Shown: piece after piece, positions 3,273 through 31,788 of the stretch
How positions within the stretch are numbered: the first letter of the stretch is position 1
How the letters are laid out: every line of letters starts with the position of its first letter
Origin: an uncultured bacterium
Lineage (GTDB): Bacteria; Auribacterota; JACPWU01
Assembly: GCA_964640155.1 (NCBI GenBank)
Contig: CAZXEQ010000001.1
Span: forward strand, 516,403-548,402
DNA length: 32,000 bases
Direction: 5' to 3'
Position numbers and translations under genes: made by a program
Notes under the pieces: model-generated
The model's database searches: none
Told to the model about the DNA's origin: nothing
The model's input: only the letters and a program-made list of their open reading frames with translations

Positions 3273-3355
3273 ATATACTGCATAGAGATGGAAGATTTAA
3301 TCAGTCAAATGGATATTTCTAAGATTTGTGCCCGGAAAACCAAAGAAAAAACCGG

Positions 3356-3399
3356 TAGGGTTACACCCCATAGCAAAGTGACAGCCTATGCAGTAGCAT
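3356..3399 (+). promoter_or_regulatory. Island promoter copy A: dyad TAGGGT-TAC-ACCCCA (3356-3370) plus TAGCAT hexamer (3394-3399)
   Basis: Dyad centre 3363 is 31 nt from the first base of the hexamer. A weak -35-like TAGCAA sits 17 nt upstream of the hexamer. The ATG of the downstream gene is at 3435. Confidence 0.55.
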
Positions 3400-3434
3400 G
3401 CTCATAGAAGGAAGGAAATAAAAAGGAGGACGCC

Positions 3435-8077: not shown

Positions 8078-8097
8078 CTTGCCATTAAAGATCCTGC

Positions 8098-8229
8098 ATA
8101 TAAAAGTGTGTCCTTTATAGATGCGGGTGACACTTGGCGGGGTGCCCCATCGCGCGCAACTTTTCGTGAGCACGATGGGGCTGACAAGTGGCAGGACCCG
8201 CCACTTTTTTAAAGGACACACTTTTATAT
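8098..8229. repeat. Family-1 hairpin element, copy 1 (132 nt, near-perfect long palindrome with a conserved GC-rich core)
   Basis: Arms are ATATAAAAGTGTGTCCTTTA / TAAAGGACACACTTTTATAT. Inner helices are GCGGGT/ACCCGC, CACTTG/CAAGTG and CCCCATCG/CGATGGGG. A second copy lies at 18723-18856. Confidence 0.75.
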
Positions 8230-8287
8230 ACAACATGGCCATAAATACTGCTCGAACTGCCAGAACGAAGAAAGCGGGTCTACGAGG

Positions 8288-8331
8288 TAGGGTTTTACCC
8301 CATAGTAGAAGCCAACTATATGGCGTAGTAT
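8288..8331 (+). promoter_or_regulatory. Island promoter copy B: dyad TAGGGT-TTT-ACCCCA (8288-8302) plus TAGTAT (8326-8331)
   Basis: Dyad centre 8295 is 31 nt from the hexamer. It sits upstream of the glycosyltransferase gene. Confidence 0.5.
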
Positions 8332-8373
8332 GTTAGTGGTTAGTTGCAAAGCTAAGTGGGGAACGATCTAAAA

Positions 8374-11602: not shown

Positions 11603-11637
11603 ATGACCTGATTTTCTAACACTCAAATAATTTAAGG

Positions 11638-11681
11638 TAGGGTTACACCCCATAGCACAGGATCATTACATGACGTAGCAT
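11638..11681 (+). promoter_or_regulatory. Island promoter copy C: dyad TAGGGT-TAC-ACCCCA (11638-11652) plus TAGCAT (11676-11681)
   Basis: Dyad centre 11645 is 31 nt from the hexamer. The downstream ATG is at 11726. Confidence 0.55.
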
Positions 11682-11725
11682 CATATTCGTATGAAGTTAC
11701 AAAAAAATTCAAAAGGAGTCATCTT

Positions 11726-13239: not shown

Positions 13240-13283
13240 AGTTTCCGCTCTCATTATTTGAGTAACACCTCCCATCGTTCAAG

Positions 13284-13327
13284 TAGGGTTACACCCCATA
13301 GCAAAGGACCCGCCTATAGCGTAGGAT
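13284..13327 (+). promoter_or_regulatory. Island promoter copy D: dyad TAGGGT-TAC-ACCCCA (13284-13298) plus TAGGAT (13322-13327)
   Basis: Dyad centre 13291 is 31 nt from the hexamer. The downstream ATG is at 13363. Confidence 0.55.
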
Positions 13328-13362
13328 GCACTTGAACAATAAACTAAAAAAGGAAATACAAA

Positions 13363-18382: not shown

Positions 18383-18722
18383 TCTCATTCTTGAATACCT
18401 TCTAAATCTACAAAAAAATACCCCACCTATGCCGTTAGAAAGACCTCTTTTGCGCAAAACCTCATTCATGTGGGTTCGCTATGTTCTATTTCAGACTACT
18501 CCGATTTTCACCGGAGCCTGTCATCCATAAACCAGGCAGCGTTCCCCGCTTTTCTTTTGTTGGCTAAAAGATATGTCTTCCCGTGACGTACACTGCAGGG
18601 TATTTTTTTAAATTCAATTTTAAAAGAGCACTAAAAACCAAAAATCTTTTATTTATAGTTAATATTTTCGACCTCTTTTTTGAGAAAAGCAAGTATTTTT
18701 TGAGGAAAAGAAAAAGAGGCCA

Positions 18723-18856
18723 TCTATAAAAATATGACCTTTATTGATGCGGGTGATGCTCGGCGGGGCGCCCCATCGAGCGCAACTTTTGCTGAGCACG
18801 ATGGGGCTGACGAGCAGCAGGACCCGCTACTTTTTCAAAGGTCATATTTTTATAGA
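18723..18856. repeat. Family-1 hairpin element, copy 2 (134 nt)
   Basis: Arms are TCTATAAAAATATGACCTTTA / CAAAGGTCATATTTTTATAGA. The core is about 86% identical to copy 1 by my hand alignment. It lies between the convergent ATP-grasp gene and pheT. Confidence 0.75.
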
Positions 18857-18910
18857 TAATTCTGCTATTCGAAGAATAAAAACCAGAGAGATAGGGATCT
18901 TCTAGAGAAA

Positions 18911-21286
18911 CTACCGAAATTGACAGCCCAAATTTTCAGTCAATTTGGATTTGATCTGACTTTCAAAAGTAACCACTTCTTCTTCTCTTAATGTCCCCTC
19001 CAAGGAGCGAAAGCATAAAGAAAAAGCCAAACTCTTCTTCCCCTGAGGGACCTGGCTACCCTGATAAACATCAAAAACTTTCACAGCCTCTAAAACAGAA
19101 GGAGCATTTTGATAAATTATTTTCAAGACTTCATCATGCGTCACCTGCTGATCTAAAATTAAAGCAATGTCTCGGGTGACACCCGGATATCGAGGAAGTT
19201 CAGAAAATCGAGGGTTTTCTCCAGAAGCTTTCAAAAGTTTTTCCAAATGAATCTGGGCCACATAAACCTTTTGCTTTAAGTCAAATTTTTTGGAGATATC
19301 GGGATGAATTTCGCCTAACCATCCTACTGAATTTTCATTTAAAAAAATTTCTGCCGAACGACCTGGATGAAAAGTTTCATTTTGGCCTTGTTGATATTTC
19401 ATTTTATCCAATCTTAAAATTTTAAAAAATTCTTCAACAATCCCTTTTAAATAAAAAAAGTCTATATCTATCTCCTCTTTCCAAGGACCCCCCACTTTTC
19501 CCATCATCGCCAAAGCAAGATGAGCAGATTCTTCTCGAGGAATTGAAAAACAAGATCCGATCTCAAACTGACGAACATTAAGATTCTGATGATGTTCATT
19601 CAAAGCCAGACTGCGTAAAAGATTTGGGATTAGGCTTGTTCTTAAATGCGACAAATCCTGACGAACTGGATTGATCAATGAAGGGGCTGTCTCTACAGGA
19701 ACTTTTGCTTTTTTTAAGTAATCGGGTGAGATAAAACTATATGTAATCGCTTCCGAAAGTCCTAATCCCTGTAAAATATTTTTTGAACATTGCTGTAAAA
19801 TATGTGAATGTGAAAAAATTTGATTCTTTTCGTCAAATTGAATCACCGGAGAAACAGCAGGGACTTTCTCATATCCCCAAATTCTCACAATTTCCTCAAT
19901 TAAATCAACTTCCCTTTCTAAATCAGGTCGATAAAGAGGAACTTGAACAGACCAGATTTCATTTGATTGTTTCTCAATCTGAAAATCTAATTTTCCGAAA
20001 ATCTGTTCCATCTCATTTGACGAAATCGGAGCGCCTAAAATGTTTTGACACCGTTTGGGGCGAAAATTGATTTTGCGAAAAGAAATCTTTTGAGGATAAA
20101 CATCTTGAATTTCTAAATCTAGAACTCCACCTGCCACCTGTTGAATTAAAAAACAAGCTCGATCCAAAGCTTCTTTTAAACCCATCGGATCCACTCCTCT
20201 TTCAAATCGATAAGAAGATTCAGAACTTAAAAGCAAAGCCTTAGATGTTTTACGAATGGTCTTGGGGTCAAAATAAGCACATTCAAGAAAAATGTTCTGA
20301 GTGTTTTCATCTACTTGCGTCCCTTTGCCACCCATAATGCCCGCTAACGCAATGGGACGACTCTTATCTGCAATAATCAGCATGGAAGAATTGAGCGGTC
20401 TCTCTATATCATCCAAAGTCAAAAGTTTTTCTTCTGGTTTTCCCCAACACACCAAAATTTCATTGCCTTGAATTTTCCCAAGATCAAACGCATGCATGGG
20501 ATGTCCAAGCTCAAGTAAAATAAGATTAGTAACATCCACTACATTATTGATCGAGCGCTGTCCCATACGTTCCAACCGCTGCTTTAACCAATAAGGCGAA
20601 GACCCTATTCTGACATTTTGAATAATCCGTCCCATATATCGAGGACAGGCGTCAGGCGCTTCAATCTTAATTTGCATCTTTTTAGAAGAATTTTTTTGAT
20701 CTATTTTTAAATCACTTTGAGGAGCACGAATCTTTTGGCCGGTCATCGCCGCAATTTCTCGAGCAATCCCTCGAATGCTTAAGGCATCCGGTCTATTGGG
20801 AGTCACATTTAAAACTAAAGCCATATCTTGAAGTTTTAAAGCATCGACAATATTTTCTCCTTTAGGAAAAGATTCTGGGAAAATCCATATCCCTTGTATA
20901 TCACTTGGAAAACCCAATTCGCTTTTTGAACAAAGCATCCCTTGAGAAAATTCTCCTCGAATCTTTGAAGAAGTTATTTTTTTATCTCCAGGCAATTGAG
21001 CTCCATCCAAAGCAACAGGAACAAAATTTCCAATCGAAATATTTTTAGCCCCGCACACAATGCGCAAGATCTCTTTACCTACATTGACATTGCAAAGACT
21101 TAAACGATCTGCATTGGGATGAGGATGAATTTCAAGAATTTCACCTACGACTACATTAGAAAAATTTGCAGAGAAATCTTCAACAGCCTCCACTTCAAAA
21201 CCTGCCATGGTCAGTCGATGGCAAAGCTCTTCTGTTGAGAAATCCCAATCCACAAACTCACGCAACCAACTTAATAAAACTTTCAT
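18911..21286 (-). CDS. pheT: phenylalanine--tRNA ligase beta subunit
   Basis: 791 aa. It has the N-terminal tRNA-binding domain (MKVLLSWLREFV...GEILEIHPHPNADRL) plus B3/4, B5 and FDX-ACB-like regions, and sits downstream of pheS. Confidence 0.95.
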   Translation of the reverse strand: MKVLLSWLREFVDWDFSTEELCHRLTMAGFEVEAVEDFSANFSNVVVGEILEIHPHPNADRLSLCNVNVGKEILRIVCGAKNISIGNFVPVALDGAQLPGDKKITSSKIRGEFSQGMLCSKSELGFPSDIQGIWIFPESFPKGENIVDALKLQDMALVLNVTPNRPDALSIRGIAREIAAMTGQKIRAPQSDLKIDQKNSSKKMQIKIEAPDACPRYMGRIIQNVRIGSSPYWLKQRLERMGQRSINNVVDVTNLILLELGHPMHAFDLGKIQGNEILVCWGKPEEKLLTLDDIERPLNSSMLIIADKSRPIALAGIMGGKGTQVDENTQNIFLECAYFDPKTIRKTSKALLLSSESSYRFERGVDPMGLKEALDRACFLIQQVAGGVLDLEIQDVYPQKISFRKINFRPKRCQNILGAPISSNEMEQIFGKLDFQIEKQSNEIWSVQVPLYRPDLEREVDLIEEIVRIWGYEKVPAVSPVIQFDEKNQIFSHSHILQQCSKNILQGLGLSEAITYSFISPDYLKKAKVPVETAPSLINPVRQDLSHLRTSLIPNLLRSLALNEHHQNLNVRQFEIGSCFSIPREESAHLALAMMGKVGGPWKEEIDIDFFYLKGIVEEFFKILRLDKMKYQQGQNETFHPGRSAEIFLNENSVGWLGEIHPDISKKFDLKQKVYVAQIHLEKLLKASGENPRFSELPRYPGVTRDIALILDQQVTHDEVLKIIYQNAPSVLEAVKVFDVYQGSQVPQGKKSLAFSLCFRSLEGTLREEEVVTFESQIKSKLTENLGCQFR

Positions 21287-21391
21287 AATAACTTTCTATT
21301 TAAAATCTTTACAAAACTTTGTTCAGAGATTGCTCCAAAAGAGTCATTTTAACAATCCCTAAGATTTTTCTAAGATCCTCTCACTGTCACA

Positions 21392-21513
21392 GTCTGATCA
21401 AAAAGCCTCAAGATGCAAGGCGCATGCAAGTGACTGCGGAGGCGTATATTTTCTAATACGCCGCACAAAGAAACGTAGCGTGCAACGAAGCAGATTGGGC
21501 TTTTTCATCAGAC
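21392..21513. repeat. Family-2 hairpin element, copy X (122 nt), inside the pheS-pheT spacer
   Basis: The outer stem is GTCTGATCAAAAAGCC / GGCTTTTTCATCAGAC (one mismatch). Conserved flanks are TGCAAGGC...TGCAAG.GACTGCGG and CGCACAAAGAA.CG.AGCG..CA.CGAAGCAG. The apical hairpin is GGCGTAT/ATACGCC. On the minus strand it starts 2 nt after the pheS stop codon. Confidence 0.7.
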
Positions 21514-21515
21514 TA

Positions 21516-22556
21516 CTAAAACTGCTTTAAGAACCTATCATCATTTTCAAAAAATAATCGTATGTCATTAATCCCATATTTCAACATCGCAATTCGCTCA
21601 ACACCCATACCAAATGCAAAGCCTGTGTATTTTTCTGAATCATATCCTACCGATTCAAGAACTTTGGGATGTACCATGCCAGCCCCTAATACTTCTAGCC
21701 AGCCCCGGGAAGAACAGACACGACAGCCAGAGCCTTCACAAACAGAGCAAGAGACGTCGACTTCAGCACTGGGTTCAGTAAAAGGGAAAAAACTGGGACG
21801 AAAACGAAGTTTGGCCTTATCACCAAAAATCTTTTTAGCAAAATAGGTTAGAACAAACTTCAAATGACTAAAACTCACATTTTCATCGATCAAAAAACCT
21901 TCTATTTGATGAAACATGGGCGAATGCGACACATCCACTTCGTCTCTGCGATAAACTCTACCTGGAGCAATGATGCGAAGCGGAGGTTTACGCTCTTTCA
22001 TAACATGGATTTGAATTGGGGAAGTATGTGTTCTCAACAAAAGTTCATTGGAAAGATACAGGGTATCTTGCATATCTCTTGCGGGATGATCTTTGGGAAT
22101 ATTTAAGGCCTCAAAATTATAATAATCTGTTTCAATCTCTGGGCCTTCTTCAATCGAAAAACCAATTTGCACAAAGGCTTGAATGATTTCATCTCTTACT
22201 TGTGTGAGGGGATGTAAATGCCCATGGTTTTTAGAGAGCCCTGGCAAAGTAACATCTAAGGTTTCTGATTTAAGTTGAATATTTCTTTGATGAGATTCTA
22301 GTTTGAGACGTGTGTTTTCAAGAAGTGATTCGACTTTGGCTTTACCCGCATGAATCAATTGTCCTACTTGAGGTCGATCTTCAGAAGAAAGGGTTCCTAG
22401 CTGTTTTAAAAGTTCTGTAATCAGGCCTTTGCGGCCTAAAAAATGAACTCTTTTTTCTTCTAGGCAATCCAAGGTAGAGAGTTGTGGGATAGCTTTCTGG
22501 GCATCCGCTACAATGCCATCAATTGTCTTAGTCCATGTCTCAACAGATTGATTCAT
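21516..22556 (-). CDS. pheS: phenylalanine--tRNA ligase alpha subunit
   Basis: 346 aa with class II aaRS motifs (HPLTQVRDEI, FRPSFFPFTEPSAEVD, GMGVERIAML). Confidence 0.95.
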   Translation of the reverse strand: MNQSVETWTKTIDGIVADAQKAIPQLSTLDCLEEKRVHFLGRKGLITELLKQLGTLSSEDRPQVGQLIHAGKAKVESLLENTRLKLESHQRNIQLKSETLDVTLPGLSKNHGHLHPLTQVRDEIIQAFVQIGFSIEEGPEIETDYYNFEALNIPKDHPARDMQDTLYLSNELLLRTHTSPIQIHVMKERKPPLRIIAPGRVYRRDEVDVSHSPMFHQIEGFLIDENVSFSHLKFVLTYFAKKIFGDKAKLRFRPSFFPFTEPSAEVDVSCSVCEGSGCRVCSSRGWLEVLGAGMVHPKVLESVGYDSEKYTGFAFGMGVERIAMLKYGINDIRLFFENDDRFLKQF

Positions 22557-22684
22557 ATAAAGCGTTCCTCGTATCTCCTTCAGGGGCTAGAAAATCTTGT
22601 CTAGTGAAGCGTATCTCGTCGAATAAACAAAAAACAATACACTCTAACAACGAAATACGAGATACGAATAACGAACAGCGTTTT
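22557..22684 (-). promoter_or_regulatory. rplT-pheS spacer with three mutually complementary segments (possible translational-coupling or attenuator leader)
   Basis: On the minus-strand RNA, S1 CGCUGUUCGUUAUUCGUAUCUCGU (22680-22657) can pair with S2 CGACGAGAUACGC (22621-22609, 10 bp) or with S3 GGAGAUACGAGGAACGC (22578-22562). S3 contains the pheS SD GAGGAA. Confidence 0.4.
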
Positions 22685-23035
22685 TTACAATGCTTTCTTA
22701 GCTGTCTCGACAAGGCTGGAAAAAACTTCTTTTTGATTTACAGCCAAGTCTGCCAAAATCTTACGATTCAAAACAATTCCAGCCTTTTTTAAACCAGAAA
22801 TGAATTTGCTGTAAGAAATGCCTAATTCCTTACTGGCGGCTCCAATTCTCGTAATCCAAAGACCTCGAAAATCTCTTTTTTTGGCAAGACGATCACGGTA
22901 AGCATAGCGAAGCGCTTTGAGAAGCGTGAATGTCGCTAGCTTATAATTGCGACGGGCATTGTAAAAACCCTTAGCTAGTTTTGTTTTCTTTTTTCTCCTC
23001 GCACGTCCGGCAGGAGCATTTGTAGAGCGCGGCAT
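22685..23035 (-). CDS. rplT: 50S ribosomal protein L20
   Basis: 116 aa, [34 protein letters not shown]...; a typical L20. Confidence 0.95.
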
Positions 23036-23110
23036 ATATATTTTCCCTTATCGTAAAAATTTACTTACAAAAATAAGTTTACAGTTAACAGTGTACCGAA
23101 AAATGACTGA

Positions 23111-23308
23111 CTACCCATTCGGAAGAAGGCGCTTGATACGACCTACATCTGAAGGATCAACAACTTTAGATCCCCTTAAAGTAAGCTTTCTCTTCTGTTT
23201 TTTATGGGCCATCAAATGACTTCCAAAAGCACTGTAACGAAGAACCTTACCGGTTCCTGTAATTTTAAATCTTTTTTTTGCACCTTTATTCGTCTTAATC
23301 TTTGGCAT
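23111..23308 (-). CDS. rpmI: 50S ribosomal protein L35
   Basis: 65 aa, MPKIKTNKGAKKRFKITGTGKVLR...; a typical L35. Confidence 0.95.
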   Translation of the reverse strand: MPKIKTNKGAKKRFKITGTGKVLRYSAFGSHLMAHKKQKRKLTLRGSKVVDPSDVGRIKRLLPNG

Positions 23309-23326
23309 AAAATTTTCCTTATTTCT

Positions 23327-23878
23327 TTACGCACCCGCCGGATGAGCCACCTTACCGCGGCCTGGAGCAATCGTCATAATCATACTTCGTCCCAAAAGTT
23401 TAGGATACTGTTCTACAGCTCCAACTTCAGCAACATCATTTATCAAACGATCCAAAAGACGTTTCCCAAATTCCATATGGGCCATTTCACGTCCTCGAAA
23501 CATCATCACTGCCTTGACCTTATTCCCTTTTTGCAAAAACTCTACAATATGTCTTAACTTTACTTCGTAATCATGATTTTCGATATTAGGATGAAATTTC
23601 ATTTCCTTAATTTTCACCACATGCTGCTTCTTGCGAGCTTCTTTCTCCTTGCGGGTTTGCTCGTAACGAAATTTCCCAAAATTAATGACGCGACAGACAG
23701 GAGGATCTGCATCGGGAGCAACTTCCACCAAATCAAGACTACGGCTTACGGCCAAAGCCAAAGCTTCTTCTTTAGTAAGAATACCTACTTGACGACCTTC
23801 GTCGTCAATCGTCCTCACCTTTGGAGCACGAATTTCATGATTCACTCGAACATGCATTATAGGAGAAACCCAAACCAC
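23327..23878 (-). CDS. infC: translation initiation factor IF-3 (start codon uncertain)
   Basis: The ORF contains VNHEIRAPKVRTIDDEGRQVGILTKEEAL...KEMKFHPNIENHDYEVKL. The maximal ORF starts at GTG 23878. In-frame ATA 23860 and ATG 23857 are alternatives, and IF-3 genes often use unusual start codons. Confidence 0.9.
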   Translation of the reverse strand: MVWVSPIMHVRVNHEIRAPKVRTIDDEGRQVGILTKEEALALAVSRSLDLVEVAPDADPPVCRVINFGKFRYEQTRKEKEARKKQHVVKIKEMKFHPNIENHDYEVKLRHIVEFLQKGNKVKAVMMFRGREMAHMEFGKRLLDRLINDVAEVGAVEQYPKLLGRSMIMTIAPGRGKVAHPAGA

Positions 23879-23942
23879 CTTTCCTAATAAAATTTAAGTG
23901 CGAAAAAGGTATCATAAAAGAAATTTCAATGCAATGAGAAAA

Positions 23943-25691
23943 CTAAAAGGTCTTACTTTGAATCTCTTGGGAAAGTTTATCTAGAAAAGCAGCGATGGCC
24001 ATTGTCCCTAAATCACCCTTTTTTCGATCTCGGACTGCAACGGTTGCAGCTTTTTCCTCTCTATCTCCAACCACCAACATGTAAGGGACCTTTTCAACTT
24101 GAGCTTCTCGAATACGAAAACCTATTTTTTCAGCTCTATCATCTAATTCAAAACGAATTCCATGCTTAAGCAATTGCTCAGCAATGCTTTTCGCATAAGT
24201 GATTTGTGCCTCAGTAATCGGAAGGATCTTGACTTGAACAGGCGCTAACCACACCGGGAAAGCTCCTCCAAAATGCTCAATCAGAATCCCTAGAAACCTC
24301 TCCATACTTCCCCAAACCGCACGATGAACCATCACCACCGGATGATGTTTCCCATCAGAAGCCACATAAGTTGCTTCAAAGCGCTCCGGTAAATTAAAGT
24401 CCACTTGAACTGTTGGACCTTGCCAACCTCTACCTAAAGCATCCACTAATTTGATGTCAATTTTAGGGCCATAAAAAACGCCTTCACCTGGATCAATTTT
24501 ATAGGGAATATTTTTGACTTTAAGAGCATCTTCCAAGGCCTTTGTCGCCTGATCCCATCGTTCAATGGTTCCTGTAAATTTCTCGGGCCGAGTACTCACA
24601 GCGACTTCATATTTAAATCCAAAGGTTTTCATCATAAAATCAACTAAATCCAAAACATTTTGAATTTCGTCTTGAAGTTGTTCAGGTGCACAAAAAATAT
24701 GTGCATCATCTTGAGTGAAACCCCTAACACGCATGAGACCATGAAGAACTCCCGTTCTCTCAAAACGATAAACGGTTCCCAACTCGGCAAAGCGCAAAGG
24801 AAGATCCCGATAACTTCTCACCCCCGAACGAAACATCAGAATATGGCCAGGACAATTCATCGGTTTGGCAACATACTGAACTTCTTCTAACTCCATGGCG
24901 GGATACATATTTTCACGATAATAATCCCAATGGCCACTTTGCTTCCATAAATCAACACGAGCCACATGAGGGGTATAAACAAATTCATACCCACGGCGAA
25001 AATGTTCATCTCTCCAAAATGTTTCTAGAATCCACCGAAGACGTCCACCCTTAGGCTGCCAGAAAACAAGACCTGGACCCGCTTCTTGATGAATGCTGAA
25101 AAGGCCTAATTCTTTACCTAATTTGCGATGATCTCTGGCCTTAGATTCTTCAATTTGTTTTAAAAAATCATCTAATTCTTTTTGAGAAGGAAAAGCGGTG
25201 CCATAAATTCTTTGAAGCATTTTATTCTTTTCATTACCACGCCAATAGGCTCCAGCCACACTTAAGAGTTTAAAAGCTTTTAGCTTGCCCGTGCTTTTTA
25301 AATGAGGACCACGACAGAGATCTAAAAACTCGCCTTGCTCATAAAGGCTGACTTTGTCATCTTGAATACCTTTAAGGATTTCCACCTTGAAAGGTTCTTT
25401 CATTTCTTCAAAAATTTGAATGGCTTCCGAGCGAGGAATTTCTTTACGAATAAAGGGAAAGTTTTCTTCTTTTATTTTAAGCATTTCTTGTTCAATACGA
25501 GCAAGATCTTCAACAGAAAAGGGATGCTCTAAATCAAAATCATAATAGAAGCCCGTTTCAATAGCGGGACCAATGGCAATCTTTGTCCCAGGAAACAAGC
25601 GCTTTACAGCTTGTGCCATGATATGCGCACCACTGTGGCGACATGTTTCCAATTCTGGACTTAAACCTTCAAAATGTTCTTCACCGTACAT
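23943..25691 (-). CDS. thrS: threonine--tRNA ligase lacking the N-terminal TGS domain
   Basis: 582 aa. It starts MYGEEHFEGLSPELETCRHSGAHIMAQAV, so the editing-domain HxxxH motif is at residue ~19 instead of ~70. Class II catalytic and anticodon-binding regions are intact (KPMNCPGH, RVRGFTQDDAHIF, HRAVWGSMERF). Confidence 0.93.
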   Translation of the reverse strand: MYGEEHFEGLSPELETCRHSGAHIMAQAVKRLFPGTKIAIGPAIETGFYYDFDLEHPFSVEDLARIEQEMLKIKEENFPFIRKEIPRSEAIQIFEEMKEPFKVEILKGIQDDKVSLYEQGEFLDLCRGPHLKSTGKLKAFKLLSVAGAYWRGNEKNKMLQRIYGTAFPSQKELDDFLKQIEESKARDHRKLGKELGLFSIHQEAGPGLVFWQPKGGRLRWILETFWRDEHFRRGYEFVYTPHVARVDLWKQSGHWDYYRENMYPAMELEEVQYVAKPMNCPGHILMFRSGVRSYRDLPLRFAELGTVYRFERTGVLHGLMRVRGFTQDDAHIFCAPEQLQDEIQNVLDLVDFMMKTFGFKYEVAVSTRPEKFTGTIERWDQATKALEDALKVKNIPYKIDPGEGVFYGPKIDIKLVDALGRGWQGPTVQVDFNLPERFEATYVASDGKHHPVVMVHRAVWGSMERFLGILIEHFGGAFPVWLAPVQVKILPITEAQITYAKSIAEQLLKHGIRFELDDRAEKIGFRIREAQVEKVPYMLVVGDREEKAATVAVRDRKKGDLGTMAIAAFLDKLSQEIQSKTF

Positions 25692-25713
25692 AAACTACCT
25701 ATCTTTTCAAAAT

Positions 25714-25738
25714 TAAGATCTGGGCGATACAGGGATCG
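25714..25738. repeat. Direct repeat, left copy: 25-nt perfect duplicate of the tRNA-Val 3' end plus 7 flanking nt
   Basis: TAAGATCTGGGCGATACAGGGATCG is identical to 25950-25974. It sits 22 nt upstream of the thrS ATG on the minus strand. Confidence 0.9.
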
Positions 25739-25949
25739 GCGCCTTCGGGACTCGTCTACCCCGATATTCATCGGGGACCTTCGGACGACTCGCCCTTCGG
25801 TCGGCCATCCGCCCCTCCTACCAGTCGTACATCAGCCCCCGCCCGGCTGATGTACATTATCATGTGTCGGGACTCCATTCGATCCCTTTTGGAAATCTTT
25901 CAAAGCTCTTTCCACAAAACTTGAGCTTACTCCACCGATACTTTCTTAC
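25739..25949 (-). other. 211-nt insert between the direct repeats; its thrS-proximal ~120 nt are GC-rich and hairpin-dense
   Basis: There is an 11-bp perfect hairpin GTACATCAGCC/GGCTGATGTAC (25827-25855) and a 7-bp hairpin CCCCGAT/ATCGGGG (25759-25776). CCTTCGG occurs three times on the plus strand. My hand count over 25739-25860 gives about 63% G+C, against clearly AT-rich flanks. Confidence 0.6.
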
Positions 25950-25974
25950 TAAGATCTGGGCGATACAGGGATCG
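25950..25974. repeat. Direct repeat, right copy (overlaps the last 18 nt of tRNA-Val)
   Basis: Identical 25-mer. The repeats diverge immediately outside it on both sides. Confidence 0.9.
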
Positions 25975-26030
25975 AACCTGTGACCTCGAGCGTGTCGAGC
26001 TCGCGCTCTAGCCAGCTGAGCTAATCGCCC
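25957..26030 (-). tRNA. tRNA-Val (anticodon GAC), no encoded CCA
   Basis: Hand-folded cloverleaf of GGGCGATTAGCTCAGCTGGCTAGAGCGCGAGCTCGACACGCTCGAGGTCACAGGTTCGATCCCTGTATCGCCCA. The acceptor is GGGCGAT/ATCGCCC, the D stem GCTC/GAGC, the anticodon stem CGAGC/GCTCG with loop UCGACAC, and the T arm ACAGG-TTCGATC-CCTGT. Confidence 0.85.
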
Positions 26031-26182
26031 GTTAAAAGCAGAGAATAGTGTTTAGTGATAAGTGAATAGAGCTAATAATAAGGTCATCACATCTCACTAA
26101 AGTCTATTTTTCTCTGAAATACTATACACAACCTTTCAAAGATTTGTAGAGTAAATTTCATTCCCCTGTTAAAATAAGGTGA

Positions 26183-26566
26183 ATGACGCCTTCAAAAGAG
26201 AAATCTGTTTCACTAAAAATTTTATATCATCAAGCTTTTGGCAAAGCCCGCCGATGGTTTAAAAGCTATGTTTATACACGCCAAACTGTCCAAACTCTTT
26301 CTGCACGCACTGGTGAATGCAATCGTTGTGGAGCTTGTTGTAAAATTATTTTTCAATGTCCTTTTTACTTAGAAGAAGATGGCAAAGGAAACTGTCGTAT
26401 TTATGGCCAGCACTTTTCACAATGCAAACTTTTCCCTTTGGAACCAAAAGATTTAATAGGGATAGACGATCAGTGCGGGTATAAATTTGATACCAATAAA
26501 TTGAAGGATCTGGCAGGCAAGAGTGTCTTTACTTCGATTAGGCTAAAATTCGGGTTGCGTGAATAA
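26183..26566 (+). CDS. YkgJ-type cysteine-cluster protein (CxxCxxCC zinc/iron-chelating domain)
   Basis: 127 aa with CNRCGACCK followed by CPFYLEEDGKGNCRIYGQHFSQCKLFP. Confidence 0.7.
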   Translation: MTPSKEKSVSLKILYHQAFGKARRWFKSYVYTRQTVQTLSARTGECNRCGACCKIIFQCPFYLEEDGKGNCRIYGQHFSQCKLFPLEPKDLIGIDDQCGYKFDTNKLKDLAGKSVFTSIRLKFGLRE

Positions 26567-26921
26567 CAAAAGTCCCCGTTGAAGTCTGAAGATTTCCGCT
26601 AAAACTATTGCGATCATTAGAGAATTGAATCACAGCTGTTGCAGATTGACCATCGCTATGAATGAAGGTTGATCGGACCTGATTGTTACTCATGGTTCCT
26701 GAAAAAGCAAAATCTCCCGTTCGACTATCAATGGCAATAGTAAAAAGATTCCCAGAGTTATTAACAGTCGCAGTTCCTGCAGAGCTTCCTCCTTGTGGAT
26801 TCACAACAACAGCCGTATACCCACCTGAAGCCTTTTTAACAGTACCATTCTTACATCCAGAAGCAATGAAGACAAAACTCAACAGAAACAAAAAAGAGAG
26901 GGTAGTGAATTTGGATTTCAT
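26538..26921 (-). CDS. small beta-rich lipoprotein, unknown function
   Basis: ORF 26538-27005. The internal start MKSKFTTLSFLFLLSFVFIASGCKNG (ATG 26921) gives a signal peptide plus lipobox ASGC. Its 3' end overlaps the convergent ykgJ-like gene by 29 nt. Confidence 0.6.
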   Translation of the reverse strand: MKSKFTTLSFLFLLSFVFIASGCKNGTVKKASGGYTAVVVNPQGGSSAGTATVNNSGNLFTIAIDSRTGDFAFSGTMSNNQVRSTFIHSDGQSATAVIQFSNDRNSFSGNLQTSTGTFVIHATRILA

Positions 26922-27025
26922 GTGGAGAATTCTACCACAACTGTTGGAGATGCAAGAAAAATTTTTGCTCATGAATCTTTTTTTCAAAACTATTTGGGTG
27001 ACCAACGAACTCTAAATAAGATTTA

Positions 27026-27580
27026 TTAACTTCTTCCCAAATATTGTCCTGTTCGAGTGTCTACCTTAATCACTTCTCCCTGCTTAATAAAAATAGGGAC
27101 TTGAATACTGTAGCCTGTTTCAACTGTTGCAAGCTTCATAACATTGGTAACCGTATCACCTCGACTGCCTGGTTCTGTTTCAAGCACTTTCAAAAGAACG
27201 CTGGCCGGCATTTCTAAATCCACCACCACCCCATCATTAATCGAAAGCTTTACCTCTAAATTTTCGGCTAAGAAGTGACTTCTCTCTCCGACAATTTCAG
27301 CCGAAACAGCGTGATTATGATAATCCTCTAAATCTAAAAAATAATATTGTCCATCATTATGATAAAGATATTGGCAATCCTTGGATTCTAACATCACGGC
27401 TTCTACAGAATCTTGAGGTCGAAAACGATTTTTGACGGTTTTGCCCGTTTTTAAATTTTTTAAGGTGGTCTGAACCATGGCCCGCCAATTTCCAGGAGTC
27501 ACATGCTGATACTCCGTTACCACATGAATTTGACCATTAAAATTAATGGCCATTCCTGGTCTCAATTCTCCTGCTTGCAT
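27026..27580 (-). CDS. efp: elongation factor P family protein with a non-canonical beta3-beta4 loop (PGNWRA)
   Basis: ORF 27026-27622. ATG 27580 (MQAGELRPGMAINFNGQIHVV) is preceded by GAGGAG at an 8-nt spacing. It has the C-terminal EF-P signature ETEPGSRGDTVTNVMKLATVETGYSIQVPIFIKQGEVIKVDTRTGQYLGR. Confidence 0.9.
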   Translation of the reverse strand: MQAGELRPGMAINFNGQIHVVTEYQHVTPGNWRAMVQTTLKNLKTGKTVKNRFRPQDSVEAVMLESKDCQYLYHNDGQYYFLDLEDYHNHAVSAEIVGERSHFLAENLEVKLSINDGVVVDLEMPASVLLKVLETEPGSRGDTVTNVMKLATVETGYSIQVPIFIKQGEVIKVDTRTGQYLGRS

Positions 27581-27710
27581 AATAAAATCTCCTCTAAAGC
27601 CCCTTCTTAAACGACAGAACATCAGAAAACAAAGATCAAAACATGATGTTCAATGTACGATCTTTCATTAAAGTTGTGCTAATATAAAGCCCGATCAACA
27701 TTTTTGCAAT

Positions 27711-28988
27711 ATGAAAACACTCGCTCTCGCAACCGATCCCAAAGGGGAAGTCTTAAAATTAGAAGATTGGGCTATGATGGCTCGATCGGGAGATCTCTAT
27801 CGAGAACCTTTGGAAGAAGAGCTTTGCGACTTTCCCAAAACAGCCGAAATTTCTTTTCTCCCCAAGCGTTCTCCCATTGTTTGGAGCCCAAAACACCATC
27901 AGCCCCAGATACTTGAGCAAGACCCTTTAACAGGACAAAGCCTTTCCACTGCTTCTGCAATTTTGCCCATTGGTTATTTAAGGACACTCCTTCCAGCTTC
28001 AGCTCCTGCCCATAAAGACTTTTTACCTCAATGGGCTTATACCGCTATAGGACTTCAACAAAATAAATGGAAAGTAGCAGGGATTAAAATTGAAACCCAG
28101 AATGATCATTGGGAAAATCATTATTACAATACCCCTGAACTTTCTGTGAAACTTCAAAAAAAACTACTTCAACAACCTAAAAATCGCGTCCTTCAACAGC
28201 TTTCAATCTGCGCTAAAGATTATCACTGTAGCACCGCACAAAATATTTTCTATGAACGCTGGGAAGGAGCTCTTCCTGTTTCCCCTGCTTGTAATGCCCA
28301 ATGTGTCGGTTGCATCAGTCTTCAACCTGAAGATTTACCTCCTTCAAGCCATGAACGCATCCGATTTGCACCTACTGTAGAAGAAATCGTAGAAGTCGCT
28401 AGCTCTCATTTACAAAACGCACCTGATCCTATTTTATCTTTTGGACAAGGCTGTGAAGGAGAACCTCTATTAGCCAGTTCTCTTATTGAAAAAGCAATTT
28501 TAGAAACTCGCAAAATAACCAATCAGGGAACTCTCAATCTCAACACCAATGGCAGCCGACCTGAAGCGTTCAAAAAGCTATGTGAAGCTGGACTTCAAAC
28601 CACACGTATCAGCATGAACAGTGCACTCAAACAAACTTATGAGAACTATTATCAACCCAAGGGATATCAATTTGAAGATGTTCAACAAACAGCTCGAATT
28701 GCACATGAAGAAGGGTTAGGCGTTTCAATTAATCTTTTGACTTTCCCAGGAGTTACAGACCGCGAAGAAGAAGTGGAGGCTTTAGTAAAATTTATTCATG
28801 AAACAAAAATCCATGCGATTCAATGGCGAAATCTTGCCATTGATCCCGATCAATATCTGTTATCTTTACCTAAACGCCAAGGAAAAATCTTGGGTATTCC
28901 ATCCTTAATCCACCATCTTAAAAAAATATTCCCCCAACTCCATCACCTTTCCTTCAGTCGACCCAAAGAGTTTTTTAATGATCATTAA
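27711..28988 (+). CDS. radical SAM protein (NifB/MoaA-like core) with a ~190-aa N-terminal extension of unknown function
   Basis: 425 aa. The CX3CX2C cluster sits in LPVSPACNAQCVGCIS, followed by FGQGCEGEPLL and NLNTNGSRP. It is divergent from efp. Confidence 0.85.
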   Translation: MKTLALATDPKGEVLKLEDWAMMARSGDLYREPLEEELCDFPKTAEISFLPKRSPIVWSPKHHQPQILEQDPLTGQSLSTASAILPIGYLRTLLPASAPAHKDFLPQWAYTAIGLQQNKWKVAGIKIETQNDHWENHYYNTPELSVKLQKKLLQQPKNRVLQQLSICAKDYHCSTAQNIFYERWEGALPVSPACNAQCVGCISLQPEDLPPSSHERIRFAPTVEEIVEVASSHLQNAPDPILSFGQGCEGEPLLASSLIEKAILETRKITNQGTLNLNTNGSRPEAFKKLCEAGLQTTRISMNSALKQTYENYYQPKGYQFEDVQQTARIAHEEGLGVSINLLTFPGVTDREEEVEALVKFIHETKIHAIQWRNLAIDPDQYLLSLPKRQGKILGIPSLIHHLKKIFPQLHHLSFSRPKEFFNDH

Positions 28989-28993
28989 AAAGA

Positions 28994-29983
28994 TTACTTA
29001 GCACTGCCGTGCCTCTCGGGCAAATTCTTTTGATAAATAGCAAATCCCCGCTTAGGACCTGCTTTTGAAGGAGGAGTAGAGCGAGGTCGGGCTAATAATT
29101 TCCAAGGTTCATTTCTTAAAGTTCTCATAAATTCTTTGGCATGTTCTGAGGTTTCCTCCAAATTTTTCATCATGCGGTCAATGCCAGGACTATTGGAATG
29201 GATCAATGTCTTGGCCTCTTTAAGAAGCTCGTCCATTTCTTGAACCGTCGTATTCATTCGCTCCAAAAGCGATTGAATCTTAGGAGCGGCCTCTTTAAAT
29301 TGACCCTTCACATCCCCCGATAATTCATACATGTTTTGAAGTGTTTCACGAATGTGTTTTCGATTCTCTTTCAGAATGCCATTAATTCTTTTCGTTAGCC
29401 CTTGAGCCTGATCCATGAGGTTTTGAACTTTTTTCTCATTTGCTATCTGTTGAACCACTTCATCTACACGTGACACAGAAGAATGAATTTTATTCATGGT
29501 ATCTTTAATCACAGGCAGCATTTCATCCAATTCCTTGCCGAATTTTTCCATCACATCGGTAATATCTGAAGGACTCCGTCCAATAATAATGCTTCCTTCA
29601 GGTAAGGACTCACTGTTTTTGCCTCCCGGAGTCAACTCAATATATTTTTCGCCTAAAAAACCTAAAGATCTAATTTCCGCATCAGAATCTTTTCTGATAA
29701 TCACGTCTTTACTTAATCGAACAGAAACTTCGATATCCTTTTCGTATTGAGTCCTTTCTTCGGCAGATAAAATTCGAACCTGCACCACTTGCCCCACTTT
29801 AAAACCAGAATAAGTGACAGGTGAATCTAATTTTAAATTTCCCAAAGAAGAAAAAAGAAGTTTGTAATTTTGGGTTTCTCCCATCAGACACACCTGTCCT
29901 GCATGCATTGAAAAATAAGCCAAGACAGCACATGCAATCAAAAAGAAAATCGCAACTTTTATGCTTGATCGTAAATAATCCAT
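28994..29983 (-). CDS. mlaD: MCE/MlaD-family protein with a long helical C-terminal extension
   Basis: 329 aa. It has an N-terminal TM helix (IKVAIFFLIACAVLAYF), an MCE core (SPVTYSGFKVGQVVQVRI...GEKYIELTPG) and then ~180 aa of coiled-coil-like sequence. Confidence 0.8.
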   Translation of the reverse strand: MDYLRSSIKVAIFFLIACAVLAYFSMHAGQVCLMGETQNYKLLFSSLGNLKLDSPVTYSGFKVGQVVQVRILSAEERTQYEKDIEVSVRLSKDVIIRKDSDAEIRSLGFLGEKYIELTPGGKNSESLPEGSIIIGRSPSDITDVMEKFGKELDEMLPVIKDTMNKIHSSVSRVDEVVQQIANEKKVQNLMDQAQGLTKRINGILKENRKHIRETLQNMYELSGDVKGQFKEAAPKIQSLLERMNTTVQEMDELLKEAKTLIHSNSPGIDRMMKNLEETSEHAKEFMRTLRNEPWKLLARPRSTPPSKAGPKRGFAIYQKNLPERHGSAK

Positions 29984-30034
29984 AAATACATGCCCCCTCG
30001 TTTAAAAATCAAAACTTCTAATCTTTAATTTTAT

Positions 30035-30826
30035 TTAGCCCACCAATGTCTTTAAATATTCGCCACTATCCCTACGCAAAGGAATCGGTCCTTCTGCAGA
30101 ACCATTGATAAATTGCTGAACTATTGGATTTTTAGAATTTCGTATCTCATCCGGTGTTCCAGACTCAATGATTTTACCTCCATGCATCATCACCATTTGA
30201 TCTGCAATGCGAAAACCGGATGTCATTTCATGTGTTACCACAATAGAAGTAATTCCTAATTTTTTACTCAAGTCCAAAATCATTTGATCAATAGAAGCTA
30301 AAGTAACAGGATCTAAACCTGCTCCCGGTTCATCATAAAAAACCAATTCTGGATCAAGCGCTAAAGCTCGGGCAATCCCTACCCTCTTTTTCATTCCTCC
30401 ACTGATTTGAGAAGGCATCAAGTTTTCAAATCCACTTAAACCTACCAGTTCTAATTTAATGCGAACCATGATTTGAATAATTTTATCATTTAAAGAAGCA
30501 TGCTCTCTTAAAGGGAAGGCCACATTTTCTCCCACCGTCATTGAATTAAAAAGAGCAGCACTTTGATAAAGAATCCCTATTTTTCTTCGAATCTTGTCAA
30601 GTTCACCTTGATTCATTTGCGTAATATCTTCATTAAAAAGAAGAATGTTTCCACTATCTGGACGCAAAGTCCCCACCAAATGTTTAAGGAAAGTACTTTT
30701 TCCACAACCACTCATTCCCATAATCACGAGAATAGACCCTTTTTTAACGGTGAGATTGAGCTGATCCAACACTCGTCTTGGACCAAAACTTTTCACCAAA
30801 TTTTTAACTTCGATAATTGCGTCCAT
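30035..30826 (-). CDS. mlaF: ABC transporter ATP-binding protein, MlaF-like
   Basis: 263 aa with Walker A GMSGCGKST, the signature QISGGMKKRVGIARAL and Walker B LVFYDEPGAGLD. Confidence 0.9.
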   Translation of the reverse strand: MDAIIEVKNLVKSFGPRRVLDQLNLTVKKGSILVIMGMSGCGKSTFLKHLVGTLRPDSGNILLFNEDITQMNQGELDKIRRKIGILYQSAALFNSMTVGENVAFPLREHASLNDKIIQIMVRIKLELVGLSGFENLMPSQISGGMKKRVGIARALALDPELVFYDEPGAGLDPVTLASIDQMILDLSKKLGITSIVVTHEMTSGFRIADQMVMMHGGKIIESGTPDEIRNSKNPIVQQFINGSAEGPIPLRRDSGEYLKTLVG

Positions 30827-30866
30827 AAATTATCCACTCTATCTTCAAAACTATTCTGGTTAATAG

Positions 30867-31004
30867 ACCTCTCAAAAAGGTTTAGCTGCAAGGCATCTGC
30901 AAGCGACTGCGGTGATCCCGATATATCGGGACCGCACAAAGAAGCGCAGCGGACAGCGAAGCAGTCCTTTAGGGCAACACAGCAGATGAGCCTTTTTCAG
31001 AGGT
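30867..31004. repeat. Family-2 hairpin element, copy Y (138 nt), inside the mlaE-mlaF spacer
   Basis: The outer stem is ACCTCTCAAAAAGG / CCTTTTTCAGAGGT, with the same single C/G mismatch position as copy X. It has the same conserved flanks and an apical hairpin TCCCGAT/ATCGGGA. On the minus strand it starts 1 nt after the mlaE stop codon. Confidence 0.7.
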
Positions 31005-31005
31005 T

Positions 31006-31788
31006 TTACAAAAAATAAAAGTATGCATTCCAAATACAGTCCACAATAATAACGAGAATCATTGAGGCAACTACAGAAAGTGTCGTTGCTTTTCCTACCC
31101 CTTCCGCCCCTCCTTGTACAATCAAACCTTGATAACATCCCATAAAGCTAATAATGGCACCAAAGGAAAAACTTTTAATCAACCCCGTCTGAATATCCTT
31201 TAAAACCAACGATTCAAATGTGCGTGAAATATAATAGGTTGTATCAATGTCTAAAGTAAGATGCCCTATGATATAGCCGCCTATAATTCCAATGAGATTG
31301 GCCAAAATAGTGAGGCAAGGAACCATCAAAAAAAGAGCTAAAAAACGTGGAGCCACCAAATAACGAACAGGATCCACTCCCATGGTTTCAAGAGCATCAA
31401 TTTCTTCAGAAACTTTCATGGTACCAATTTCAGCCGCAATTCCAGCTCCAACGCGACCTGAAACAACAATGGCTGTTACAAGAGGTCCCAATTCACGGGT
31501 AAAAGAAATTCCTACCAAGCCTGCAATTAAAATTTCTCCCCCTAATTTTTTAAGCTGATACGCAGTGAGCATAGCAAGCGTCAGCCCTAAAAAAAACGAG
31601 ACAAGAGAAACAATGGTTAAAGAACGAACTCCTCCATCCAACATTTGCTTCACTGTTTCTTTAAGACTCACGGGTTTACGCCTGACAAAACCCATCACAA
31701 GCCAAACAAAAGTTTGCCCCATCAAAAAAAGAAAGCTTTCCAAATGACAAAGAGCCGGTTTAACCCAAAGCTGCCAAGATTTGATCAA
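31006..31788 (-). CDS. mlaE: ABC transporter permease, MlaE-like
   Basis: 260 aa, polytopic, with the MlaE-type motifs ELGPLVTAIVVSGRVGAGIAAEIGTMKVSEEIDALETMG. Confidence 0.9.
   Translation of the reverse strand: MIKSWQLWVKPALCHLESFLFLMGQTFVWLVMGFVRRKPVSLKETVKQMLDGGVRSLTIVSLVSFFLGLTLAMLTAYQLKKLGGEILIAGLVGISFTRELGPLVTAIVVSGRVGAGIAAEIGTMKVSEEIDALETMGVDPVRYLVAPRFLALFLMVPCLTILANLIGIIGGYIIGHLTLDIDTTYYISRTFESLVLKDIQTGLIKSFSFGAIISFMGCYQGLIVQGGAEGVGKATTLSVVASMILVIIVDCIWNAYFYFL

Follow-up and report, generated by a model that had tools for sequence, protein, structure and literature searches.

Two copies of a palindromic repeat, here named Family-2, occupy the pheS-pheT and mlaE-mlaF spacers of the window that we analyzed, a 32,000-nt stretch of a Candidatus Auribacterota metagenome-assembled genome (MAG) of the Planctomycetes-Verrucomicrobia-Chlamydiae (PVC) group (2.44 Mb, 97% complete, 60% GC). 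On balance, the evidence tips toward a reading of Family-2 as a mobile DNA repeat, non-autonomous and modular, that forms hairpins and is 120-150 nt long, because its copies are modular mosaics, its sites turn over heavily, duplications and a footprint accompany some of these sites, solo ends exist, its replication polarity is strict, and no signal singles out the RNA strand. Family-2 is a multi-phylum family whose only published mention is Gmet_R1001-R1024 of Geobacter metallireducens. New here are its exclusive association with the leading strand, the duplications and the footprint, and the swapping of apices at orthologous sites.

Iterated nhmmer searches over the whole 2.44-Mb genome gathered 23 full copies, as well as a variant with the same arms. 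The congener (JAYRIK01) carries 30 copies and two other genera, G003 and G002, carry 23 and about 10, respectively; a further relative, G019, holds a variant with another left arm. Matches to the core pattern also occur in Omnitrophota, Planctomycetia, Nitrospirota and Ca. Undivivens MAGs, and comparison with a published alignment (PMC2700814, Additional file 4) shows that the core is homologous to Gmet_R1001-R1024. No covariance model in Rfam matched Family-2, with only tRNA and 6S RNA appearing in the window at the gathering threshold and only chance snoRNA matches at E values up to 10. The plasmid and phage collections that we searched likewise gave no Family-2 match.

The most conspicuous property of the family is its placement. 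A preliminary description of this DNA had noted the stop-adjacent, co-oriented position of the two window copies, and the pattern holds genome-wide: 21-22 of the 23 nhmmer copies in the genome under study begin a few nucleotides from the stop of a co-oriented long open reading frame (ORF). In a larger set of 89 copies, drawn from five genomes and the cross-phylum loci, 78 have an ORF of at least 80 codons (our cut-off) that either terminates 5-21 nt ahead of the invariant TGAAAAAG or takes its stop from the TGA of that sequence. Overall, about 85-90% of copies thus begin at a co-oriented stop. In 54 of 77 copies, pairing of the hairpin begins -3 to +5 nt from the stop; the internal TGA is used in ten more, and half of the copies lie 0-5 nt past a native stop. 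Random placement in permissive DNA, taken as non-coding DNA plus the last 12 nt of genes, would yield 8.6%, and the corresponding P values range from 1e-17 to 1e-23 per genome (about 1e-20 for the genome under study). All six copies in convergent spacers of 200-450 nt still abut a co-oriented stop, so a mere "safe place" for insertion cannot account for the pattern. No copy lies inside a real gene; the long frames that span copies are only upstream extensions of metH or ftsK or antisense frames at 60% GC. The stops next to copies are enriched in TGA (35%) and TAG (27%) relative to the genome as a whole (26% and 18%), and part of the stop pattern arises because the element carries its own TGA, at offsets +1 and +10.

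Element orientation also tracks the replication strand, and does so more strictly than would follow from the orientation of genes alone. Replication strand was read from GC skew, which is strong and uniform over each contig of the genome. The leading strand holds about 73% of genes, and 79% of those with a co-directional neighbor downstream. Among the copies, 23 of 23 have their top strand (TGAAAAAG...) on the leading strand, which is to say that it serves as the template for lagging-strand synthesis. When the 30 copies of the congener are assigned a polarity by synteny, 29 show the same one, and the single exception is ambiguous, as it lies at zero skew. Because most sites are independent, roughly 48 of 48 against a background of 0.73-0.79 corresponds to P between 1e-5 and 1e-7. 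The copy at C5:19695, conserved in both species, is anti-oriented to both neighboring genes yet keeps the leading-strand orientation. In Geobacter, a hand count of the published coordinates suggests that the 24 copies form two large blocks along the chromosome, each with its copies on one strand.

The consensus fold of 75 copies that have no optional modules is a single long hairpin with interruptions, whose pairing we compared with 300 column shuffles and with slid pairings as controls. The outer helix is 92% paired versus 67% in column shuffles, with 173 double-change cells versus 58, and the apical helix is 98.5% paired versus 92%, with 40 double-change cells versus 8. The flanks between them had been described as not complementary to each other, but this does not hold for the family: 13 flank pairs form interrupted inner helices that are 89% paired versus 74% in shuffles (maximum 76%), with 153 double-change cells versus a mean of 48 (maximum 64), and slid controls reach at most 52%. 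All three sets of helices beat every one of the 300 shuffles and all slid controls. Hence the flanks hold covarying helices, since both their pairing and their double changes exceed those of the shuffles, and the sequence that is both unpaired and constant is confined to internal loops, such as CATCTG, which recurs as a direct repeat in both arms. The arm tips are the most variable part of the element yet always match their partner, which fits recognition of the fold and not of the tip sequence. The arms extend 7-9 bp past the invariant TGAAAAAG/CTTTTTGA, and the element has the terminal inverted repeats and small non-coding size of miniature inverted-repeat transposable elements (MITEs). Wobble pairs show no preference for the transcribed strand (107 G.T versus 111 A.C). 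Two fixed positions point in opposite ways, and outside these two the excess lies on the other strand. The antisense strand also gives a somewhat better consensus fold (-41 versus -30).

The building blocks of a copy are the left arm, the core, an apical hairpin that can be exchanged, a 28-nt hairpin that is optional, the right arm and often a second right-arm-like tail; in many copies this tail past the right arm is a second, better-matching right arm, GGGTTTTTCAGAGGTTTC. Although the apical hairpin had been regarded as free in sequence, it comes as two discrete conserved types. Most apices read GGCGTAC-N8-GTACGCC with compensatory variants, and a few copies carry CCCGAT..ATCGGG, which occurs 31 times in the genome, three times in Family-2 and otherwise mostly in other repeat families. 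At two orthologous sites (C1:242668 and C6:39974), the copies of the genome under study and of its congener have swapped apices between near-identical flanks, and at four orthologous sites the 28-nt hairpin is present in one species and not in the other. These differences imply gene conversion or cassette-like exchange. As a separate observation, at least three further palindromic repeat families, whose arms differ, have CCCGAT-loop-ATCGGG as their apex (for example at C1:542162), and this hairpin behaves as a module shared across families. Another copy, L130 (G002:C12, about 1500-2063), is interrupted precisely in its apical loop by about 440 nt of non-coding sequence; this insert is rich in small GC-rich palindromes, and no credible ORF was found within it.

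Only about 5-6 of roughly 50 sites are common to the genome under study and its congener. At L127 (12/12), L121 (10/11), L068, L062 and C2:133163 in the genome under study, the element and its tail are flanked by direct repeats of 10-14 bp, which reach to the stop or just past it; a duplication is also clear in the L063 footprint. At C1:600475-600500 the same genome has a tandem TTTTACGGTT TTTTACGGTT exactly where the congener has a full copy, and this looks like an excision-type footprint in which both target duplications have been retained. Left ends also occur alone: such solo ends, 25-28 nt long and all ending in AATCTGC, lie directly behind a stop and ahead of the ribosome-binding site of the next gene at C1:115973-115997, C1:292925-292948 and C3:137711-137735, and a solo right part is found at C3:139387-139463. 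Some "empty" sites are remnants: two genes end in N-L-stop in both species, with the element's AAC CTC TGA in the congener and AAT TTA TAA or AAT CTT TGA in the genome under study.

The two window copies illustrate these properties. As first described, both are on the minus strand in the same orientation, at 21391-21514 and about 30864-31008, and Pfam confirms the identities proposed for the surrounding genes. Copy 1 (124 nt; nhmmer E = 2e-34) is one long imperfect hairpin in the spacer between pheS (21516-22556, minus strand; tRNA-synt_2d, 1e-106) and pheT (18911-21286, minus strand; B3_4, tRNA_synthFbeta, FDX-ACB and B5). Copy 2 (nhmmer E = 1.3e-22) separates mlaE (31006-31788, minus strand; MlaE, 7e-78) from an mlaF-like ABC ATPase gene (30035-30826, minus strand; ABC_tran, 7e-32), to whose start a spacer at 30827-30863 leads. 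Each copy does begin right after the upstream stop. The left outer arm of copy 1, AGTCTGATGAAAAAGCC (21498-21514), starts 1 nt past the pheS TAG (21518-21516) and pairs with the right outer arm, GGCTTTTTGATCAGACT (21391-21407), except for one G.G mismatch. In copy 2 the left outer arm, ACCTCTGAAAAAGG (30991-31004), starts at 31004/31005, the right outer arm is CCTTTTTGAGAGGT (30867-30880), and the mlaE TAA (31008-31006) lies within or abuts the outer stem. The single mismatch that the two outer stems were said to share is indeed present, as a G.G opposition (TGA in both arms), but the stems are longer than had been stated, at 14-17 bp. The copies are 77% identical, and it was rightly noted that their flanks are conserved whereas their apices differ: copy 1 has the common type, GGCGTAT-loop-ATACGCC (21441-21462), a stem that covaries in the family (GGCGTAC, GACGTAT, GATGTAC, GGTGTAC, GGCGGAT), and copy 2 has the second type, TCCCGAT-AT-ATCGGGA (30916-30931), the module common to other repeat families. 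Copy 2 also contains an optional 21-nt insert, TGTGTTGCCCTAAAGGACTGC (30961-30981), at the module boundary after CATCTGC, where two other copies have inserts that are equally long. For each copy, both strands form a single long hairpin (-50 to -58 kcal/mol; z = -5.3 to -7.0 relative to shuffled sequences), with RNA folds of -50.3 kcal/mol (z = -6.3) for copy 1 and -57 kcal/mol (z = -5.3) for copy 2.

The congener has pheS-TAA-11 nt-ATG-pheT and mlaE-TAG-7 nt-ATG-mlaF at the corresponding junctions, the latter site being empty. Because these spacers are only 11 nt and 7 nt long, both window copies split tightly coupled junctions. Between copy 1 and the pheT start there is an extra unique spacer (21287-21390) that the congener does not have. 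Over 13 nt, CTTTTGGAGCAAT, it is identical to the 3′ end of pheS in G003, and it terminates in ATTTTAAATAGAAAGTTATTATG, which resembles the stop-to-start junction of the congener. Judging from these resemblances, this spacer may be the decayed relic of an older pheS 3′ end. In the two other genera (loci L003 in G003 and L004 in G002), the pheS-pheT spacers are 193 and 251 nt long and carry different GC-rich palindromic repeats shortly past the pheS stop. The pheS-pheT junction, and post-stop positions generally, attract several unrelated hairpin repeat families.

The Geobacter homologues were published, 24 in number, as "predicted short RNA elements" of G. metallireducens (Aklujkar et al. 2009, PMC2700814, Additional file 4), in a paper that gives no function, placement rule or mobility data for them. 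They share with Family-2 the order and orientation of the core, CCATCT..CG.., GCTCC(C)TTTGTGCGGCGTA[G/C]C - loop - G[C/T]ACGCCTCCGCAGTC, GCCTTGA.CTTG, in which the blocks CCATCT..CG, GCTCCCTTTGTGCGGCGTAGC-GCTGCTACGCCTCCGCAGTC and GCCTTGA.CTTG are common to both. They are also multi-copy intergenic units of about 112-125 nt, present in several species and closed by a variable outer stem. Their central palindrome, GRCGTAGC..GCTACGCC between TTGTGCG and CTCCGC, has its counterpart in TTTGTGCG-GCGTA[CT]..[AG]TACGC-CTCCGCAG in the pheS-pheT copy and most others; the mlaE-mlaF copy keeps the flanks and has the alternative CCCGAT apex. The differences lie in the arm tips, in the outer runs, with TTTT to the left and AAAAA to the right in the Geobacter elements but the other way round in Family-2, and in the apex, which is GCGTAGC-GCTGCTACGC in Geobacter but GGCGTAC-N8-GTACGCC or of the CCCGAT type in Family-2.

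Several known systems resemble Family-2 in part. Repetitive extragenic palindromic (REP) sequences of Proteobacteria, together with the bacterial interspersed mosaic elements (BIMEs) and REPINs that they build, are likewise extragenic palindromes in transcribed DNA that are found mostly just behind genes and also within operons, are mosaic and modular, and have no transposase beside each copy. However, REPs are units of 20-40 nt with a conserved GTAG head that depend on a Y1 HUH enzyme, the REP-associated tyrosine transposase (RAYT), and the genome under study has no Y1_Tnp gene. Family-2, in contrast, is a single unit of 120-150 nt with a conserved non-palindromic core, far tighter anchoring to stops and leading-strand exclusivity. 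The long-hairpin MITEs (ERIC/IRU, Correia/NEMIS and Chunjie) are similar in size, in their terminal inverted repeats, in presence/absence polymorphism, in some target duplications and in inserting into transcribed intergenic DNA. They differ in having conserved tips, short fixed duplications (TA), both orientations and a known or inferred parent insertion sequence (IS), whereas the tips of Family-2 vary and covary, its duplications are about 10-14 bp where visible, it keeps to one orientation with respect to both gene and replication, and a parent IS was looked for and not found. The ends of IS200/IS605 elements and the attC sites resemble Family-2 in their possible mode of action, that is, in the primacy of structure over tip sequence, in replication-strand polarity and, for attC, in a position directly behind an ORF stop. 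Yet Family-2 termini, by reading of the sequences, contain no R''/R' boxes (RYYYAAC/GTTRRRY), the copies are associated with core genes and not with cassettes, the genome under study encodes no Y1 transposase, and neither attC nor IS200/IS605 makes target duplications. By analogy, these comparisons fit an element that would work like attC or IS200/IS605 ends and that looks like REP/BIME and long-hairpin MITEs, but that lacks the defining traits of each family.

As a mobile repeat, Family-2 would be recognized and mobilized in the form of a folded single strand; the top strand of the element is at once the lagging-strand template and the non-template strand of the gene. The enzyme would not be encoded beside the element and might be a host enzyme. 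Insertion at the last codons or at the stop, by a staggered cut, would produce duplications of about 10-14 bp, and in some copies the element's own TGA (at the arm tip or in CTGAAAAAG) would become the stop of the gene. Later erosion by deletion could then leave solo ends, and gene conversion could homogenize or re-assort copies and thereby swap apices. Any effect on the pheS-pheT and mlaE-mlaF messages would probably be secondary, as might be expected by analogy with a stop-proximal REP in E. coli, given a very stable hairpin right behind the stop. Stop-proximal REPs affect mRNA stability and translation, and a role of Family-2 in RNA processing, stability, insulation or translational coupling is possible as a consequence of insertion. 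A bolder idea makes Family-2 a structure-specific single-strand DNA element with translation stops as its homing sites: an enzyme that the element does not encode, possibly one of the host, would place the folded hairpin in the coding (non-template) strand where that strand is first exposed after the ribosome leaves, and only if it is also the lagging-strand template. This we consider doubtful.

A number of observations weigh against a mobile DNA repeat. The duplications are clear in only a minority of copies and vary in length, and 9/10 matches occur in 10 of 102 cognate versus 31 of 607 non-cognate flank pairs, an excess of about 2-fold. Some "empty" sites are decayed remnants; together with the existence of solo ends, this means that turnover includes much loss, and may consist mostly of it, with new insertions an uncertain part. 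Between orthologous copies the identity is 89%, compared with 88% for adjacent coding DNA; they are more conserved than neutral spacers, which often fail to align. This conservation among orthologs, and that of the core across phyla, would fit a selected function as well as gene conversion or recent transfer. Variation of arm tips between copies is unusual for ends that a transposase recognizes. Nor did we find, in the genome searched, a transposase with matching ends or an arm pair that encloses an ORF. A search of the genome under study for multi-copy IS by self-BLAST recovered none, but only tuf and internal repeats of giant genes, and the same genome contains no Y1 HUH transposase (RAYT, PF01797; control genomes gave matches), no reverse transcriptase (RVT_1) and no real DDE_Tnp_1. 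Finally, we know of no mechanism by which an element could locate stop codons.

Some of the same evidence can be read in favor of function. The preliminary description took the element for a functional RNA or protein-binding module, and it is indeed structured, holds conserved unpaired sequence and is tied to stops in gene orientation, but the evidence points first to a mobile DNA repeat. It is possible, though rather unlikely, that Family-2 is a selected cis-acting RNA element of 3′ untranslated or intercistronic regions, in which a hairpin whose base is opened by the terminating ribosome shields the upstream message from 3′ exonucleases, insulates or tunes translation, or binds an RNA-binding protein via its constant loops. 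The nucleotide-precise, co-oriented position at the stop, the covariation of all helices with conserved loops, and a core conserved across phyla in copies that are, between orthologs, as conserved as coding DNA are all in keeping with such a role. There is precedent as well, in that E. coli REP sequences stabilize upstream mRNA, and Liang, Rudd and Deutscher reportedly found in 2015 that a REP within about 15 nt of a stop lowers translation via ribosome stalling. However, the balance of G.U pairs and the better antisense fold give no indication that the transcribed strand is the one under selection, the sites are mostly not conserved between congeners, and the upstream genes are functionally unrelated. 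Moreover, the copy at C5:19695 obeys the replication strand although it opposes both neighbors, and no copy follows a lagging-strand gene, which RNA function does not predict.

Another alternative is a host function of the DNA itself on the lagging-strand template, for example as a BIME/REP-like binding site (for gyrase, IHF/HU or Pol I) or as a hairpin like those of single-strand initiation or primosome assembly, with copies being kept for that role. The strict replication-strand polarity, the equal folding of both strands and lack of an RNA-strand signal, the conserved internal loops with their CATCTG repeat in both arms, and the two same-strand blocks of the 24 hand-counted Geobacter copies agree with this proposal. 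We nevertheless judge it improbable, as it leaves the contact with stop codons unexplained, sites turn over rapidly between congeners, and no candidate binding protein was identified. Still less credence is given to a mobile (bidirectional) intrinsic terminator or attenuator, in which a long GC-rich hairpin with an A-tract before it and a T5 run after it would end or attenuate transcription and which would be tolerated in operons where a ribosome at the nearby stop prevents the hairpin. It was initially stated that no U-run is present, but a T5 run does lie directly past the inner hairpin, within the outer stem; AAAAA and TTTTT flank the inner hairpin in copies from the PVC group, and a terminator scan gave one weak local match, a small hairpin with a T-run, in the pheS-pheT copy. 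The same scan gave none in the mlaE-mlaF copy, the essential genes pheT and mlaF lie downstream, and copies in convergent spacers are still found at the stop. The Geobacter homologues have the T-run 5′ and the A-run 3′, and because the runs thus sit on opposite sides, the family does not conserve a U-run behind a hairpin. With the T-run paired within the outer stem, no match in the second copy and the run on the opposite side in Geobacter, termination is unlikely as the core function of the family on sequence grounds, and the original view that the element is not a plain terminator is supported.

Several more specific relationships were examined and set aside. Long duplication of the 3′ end of the upstream gene is not a general feature, as cognate upstream and downstream flanks score no better in local alignment than non-cognate pairs (16.1 versus 15.7) and only the pheS-pheT spacer is suggestive. 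The outer arm is not copied from the target, since empty sites are unlike arm tips, and the two window copies lack the TA duplication of a mariner-like element. A hammerhead core (CUGAUGA) in copy 1 is not kept in the family, whose consensus is YTGAAAAAG. Coding insertion like that of Rickettsia palindromic elements was discounted as well, because no copy is read through in frame inside a gene. The published pattern of the Ssn-related motif (NTS/SRM; Chenal et al. 2025), HGTCWYN(0-2)YYVSBRHN(0-5)WNVSBRGN(0-2)RNCYNB, has two matches genome-wide in the genome under study and none within its Family-2 copies. Those motifs flank Ssn genes of the GIY-YIG type (cd10448); a 112-aa GIY-YIG ORF lies at C6:87015-87353, and no Family-2 copy flanks it.

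Other repeats and RNA genes are present in the window. Four co-oriented copies of a different dispersed repeat family, GGTAGGGTTACACCCCATAGC..GTAGCAT, are found at 3353-3424, 8285-8340, 11635-11706 and 13281-13352. A third family is represented by a palindromic element of 135 nt that is bounded by AT-rich terminal inverted repeats of 21-32 nt; its copies at 8095-8233 and 18722-18859 are 84% identical. A 6S RNA gene (18416-18604, minus strand; Rfam RF00013, 64 bits) lies between one of these 135-nt elements and downstream genes. A perfect 25-nt direct repeat, TAAGATCTGGGCGATACAGGGATCG, occurs at 25714-25738 and 25950-25974, 236 nt apart, the second copy overlapping a tRNA gene (25957-26030). 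Elsewhere in the genome, tuf (EF-Tu) is present twice, at C2:368817-370014 and C2:384572-385769, in copies that are 100% identical and spaced 16 kb apart.

Dispersed palindromic repeats are common in bacteria, and their choice of sites is mostly unexplained. Family-2 has a core conserved from Geobacter to the PVC group, lies on stop codons about ten times more often than expected by chance and, in the genus studied, is found only with leading-strand genes. Because Geobacter is culturable and carries the same family, the basis of this placement can be addressed by experiment. If it is selective, then a widespread 3′-end function of RNA or DNA has been overlooked since 2009. Alternatively, if it is mechanistic, Family-2 would reveal an unknown insertion pathway that reads the state of translation or replication. 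Homing to stop codons, if true, would be a targeting principle that no mobile element has been described to use, and it would be at work in at least five phyla.

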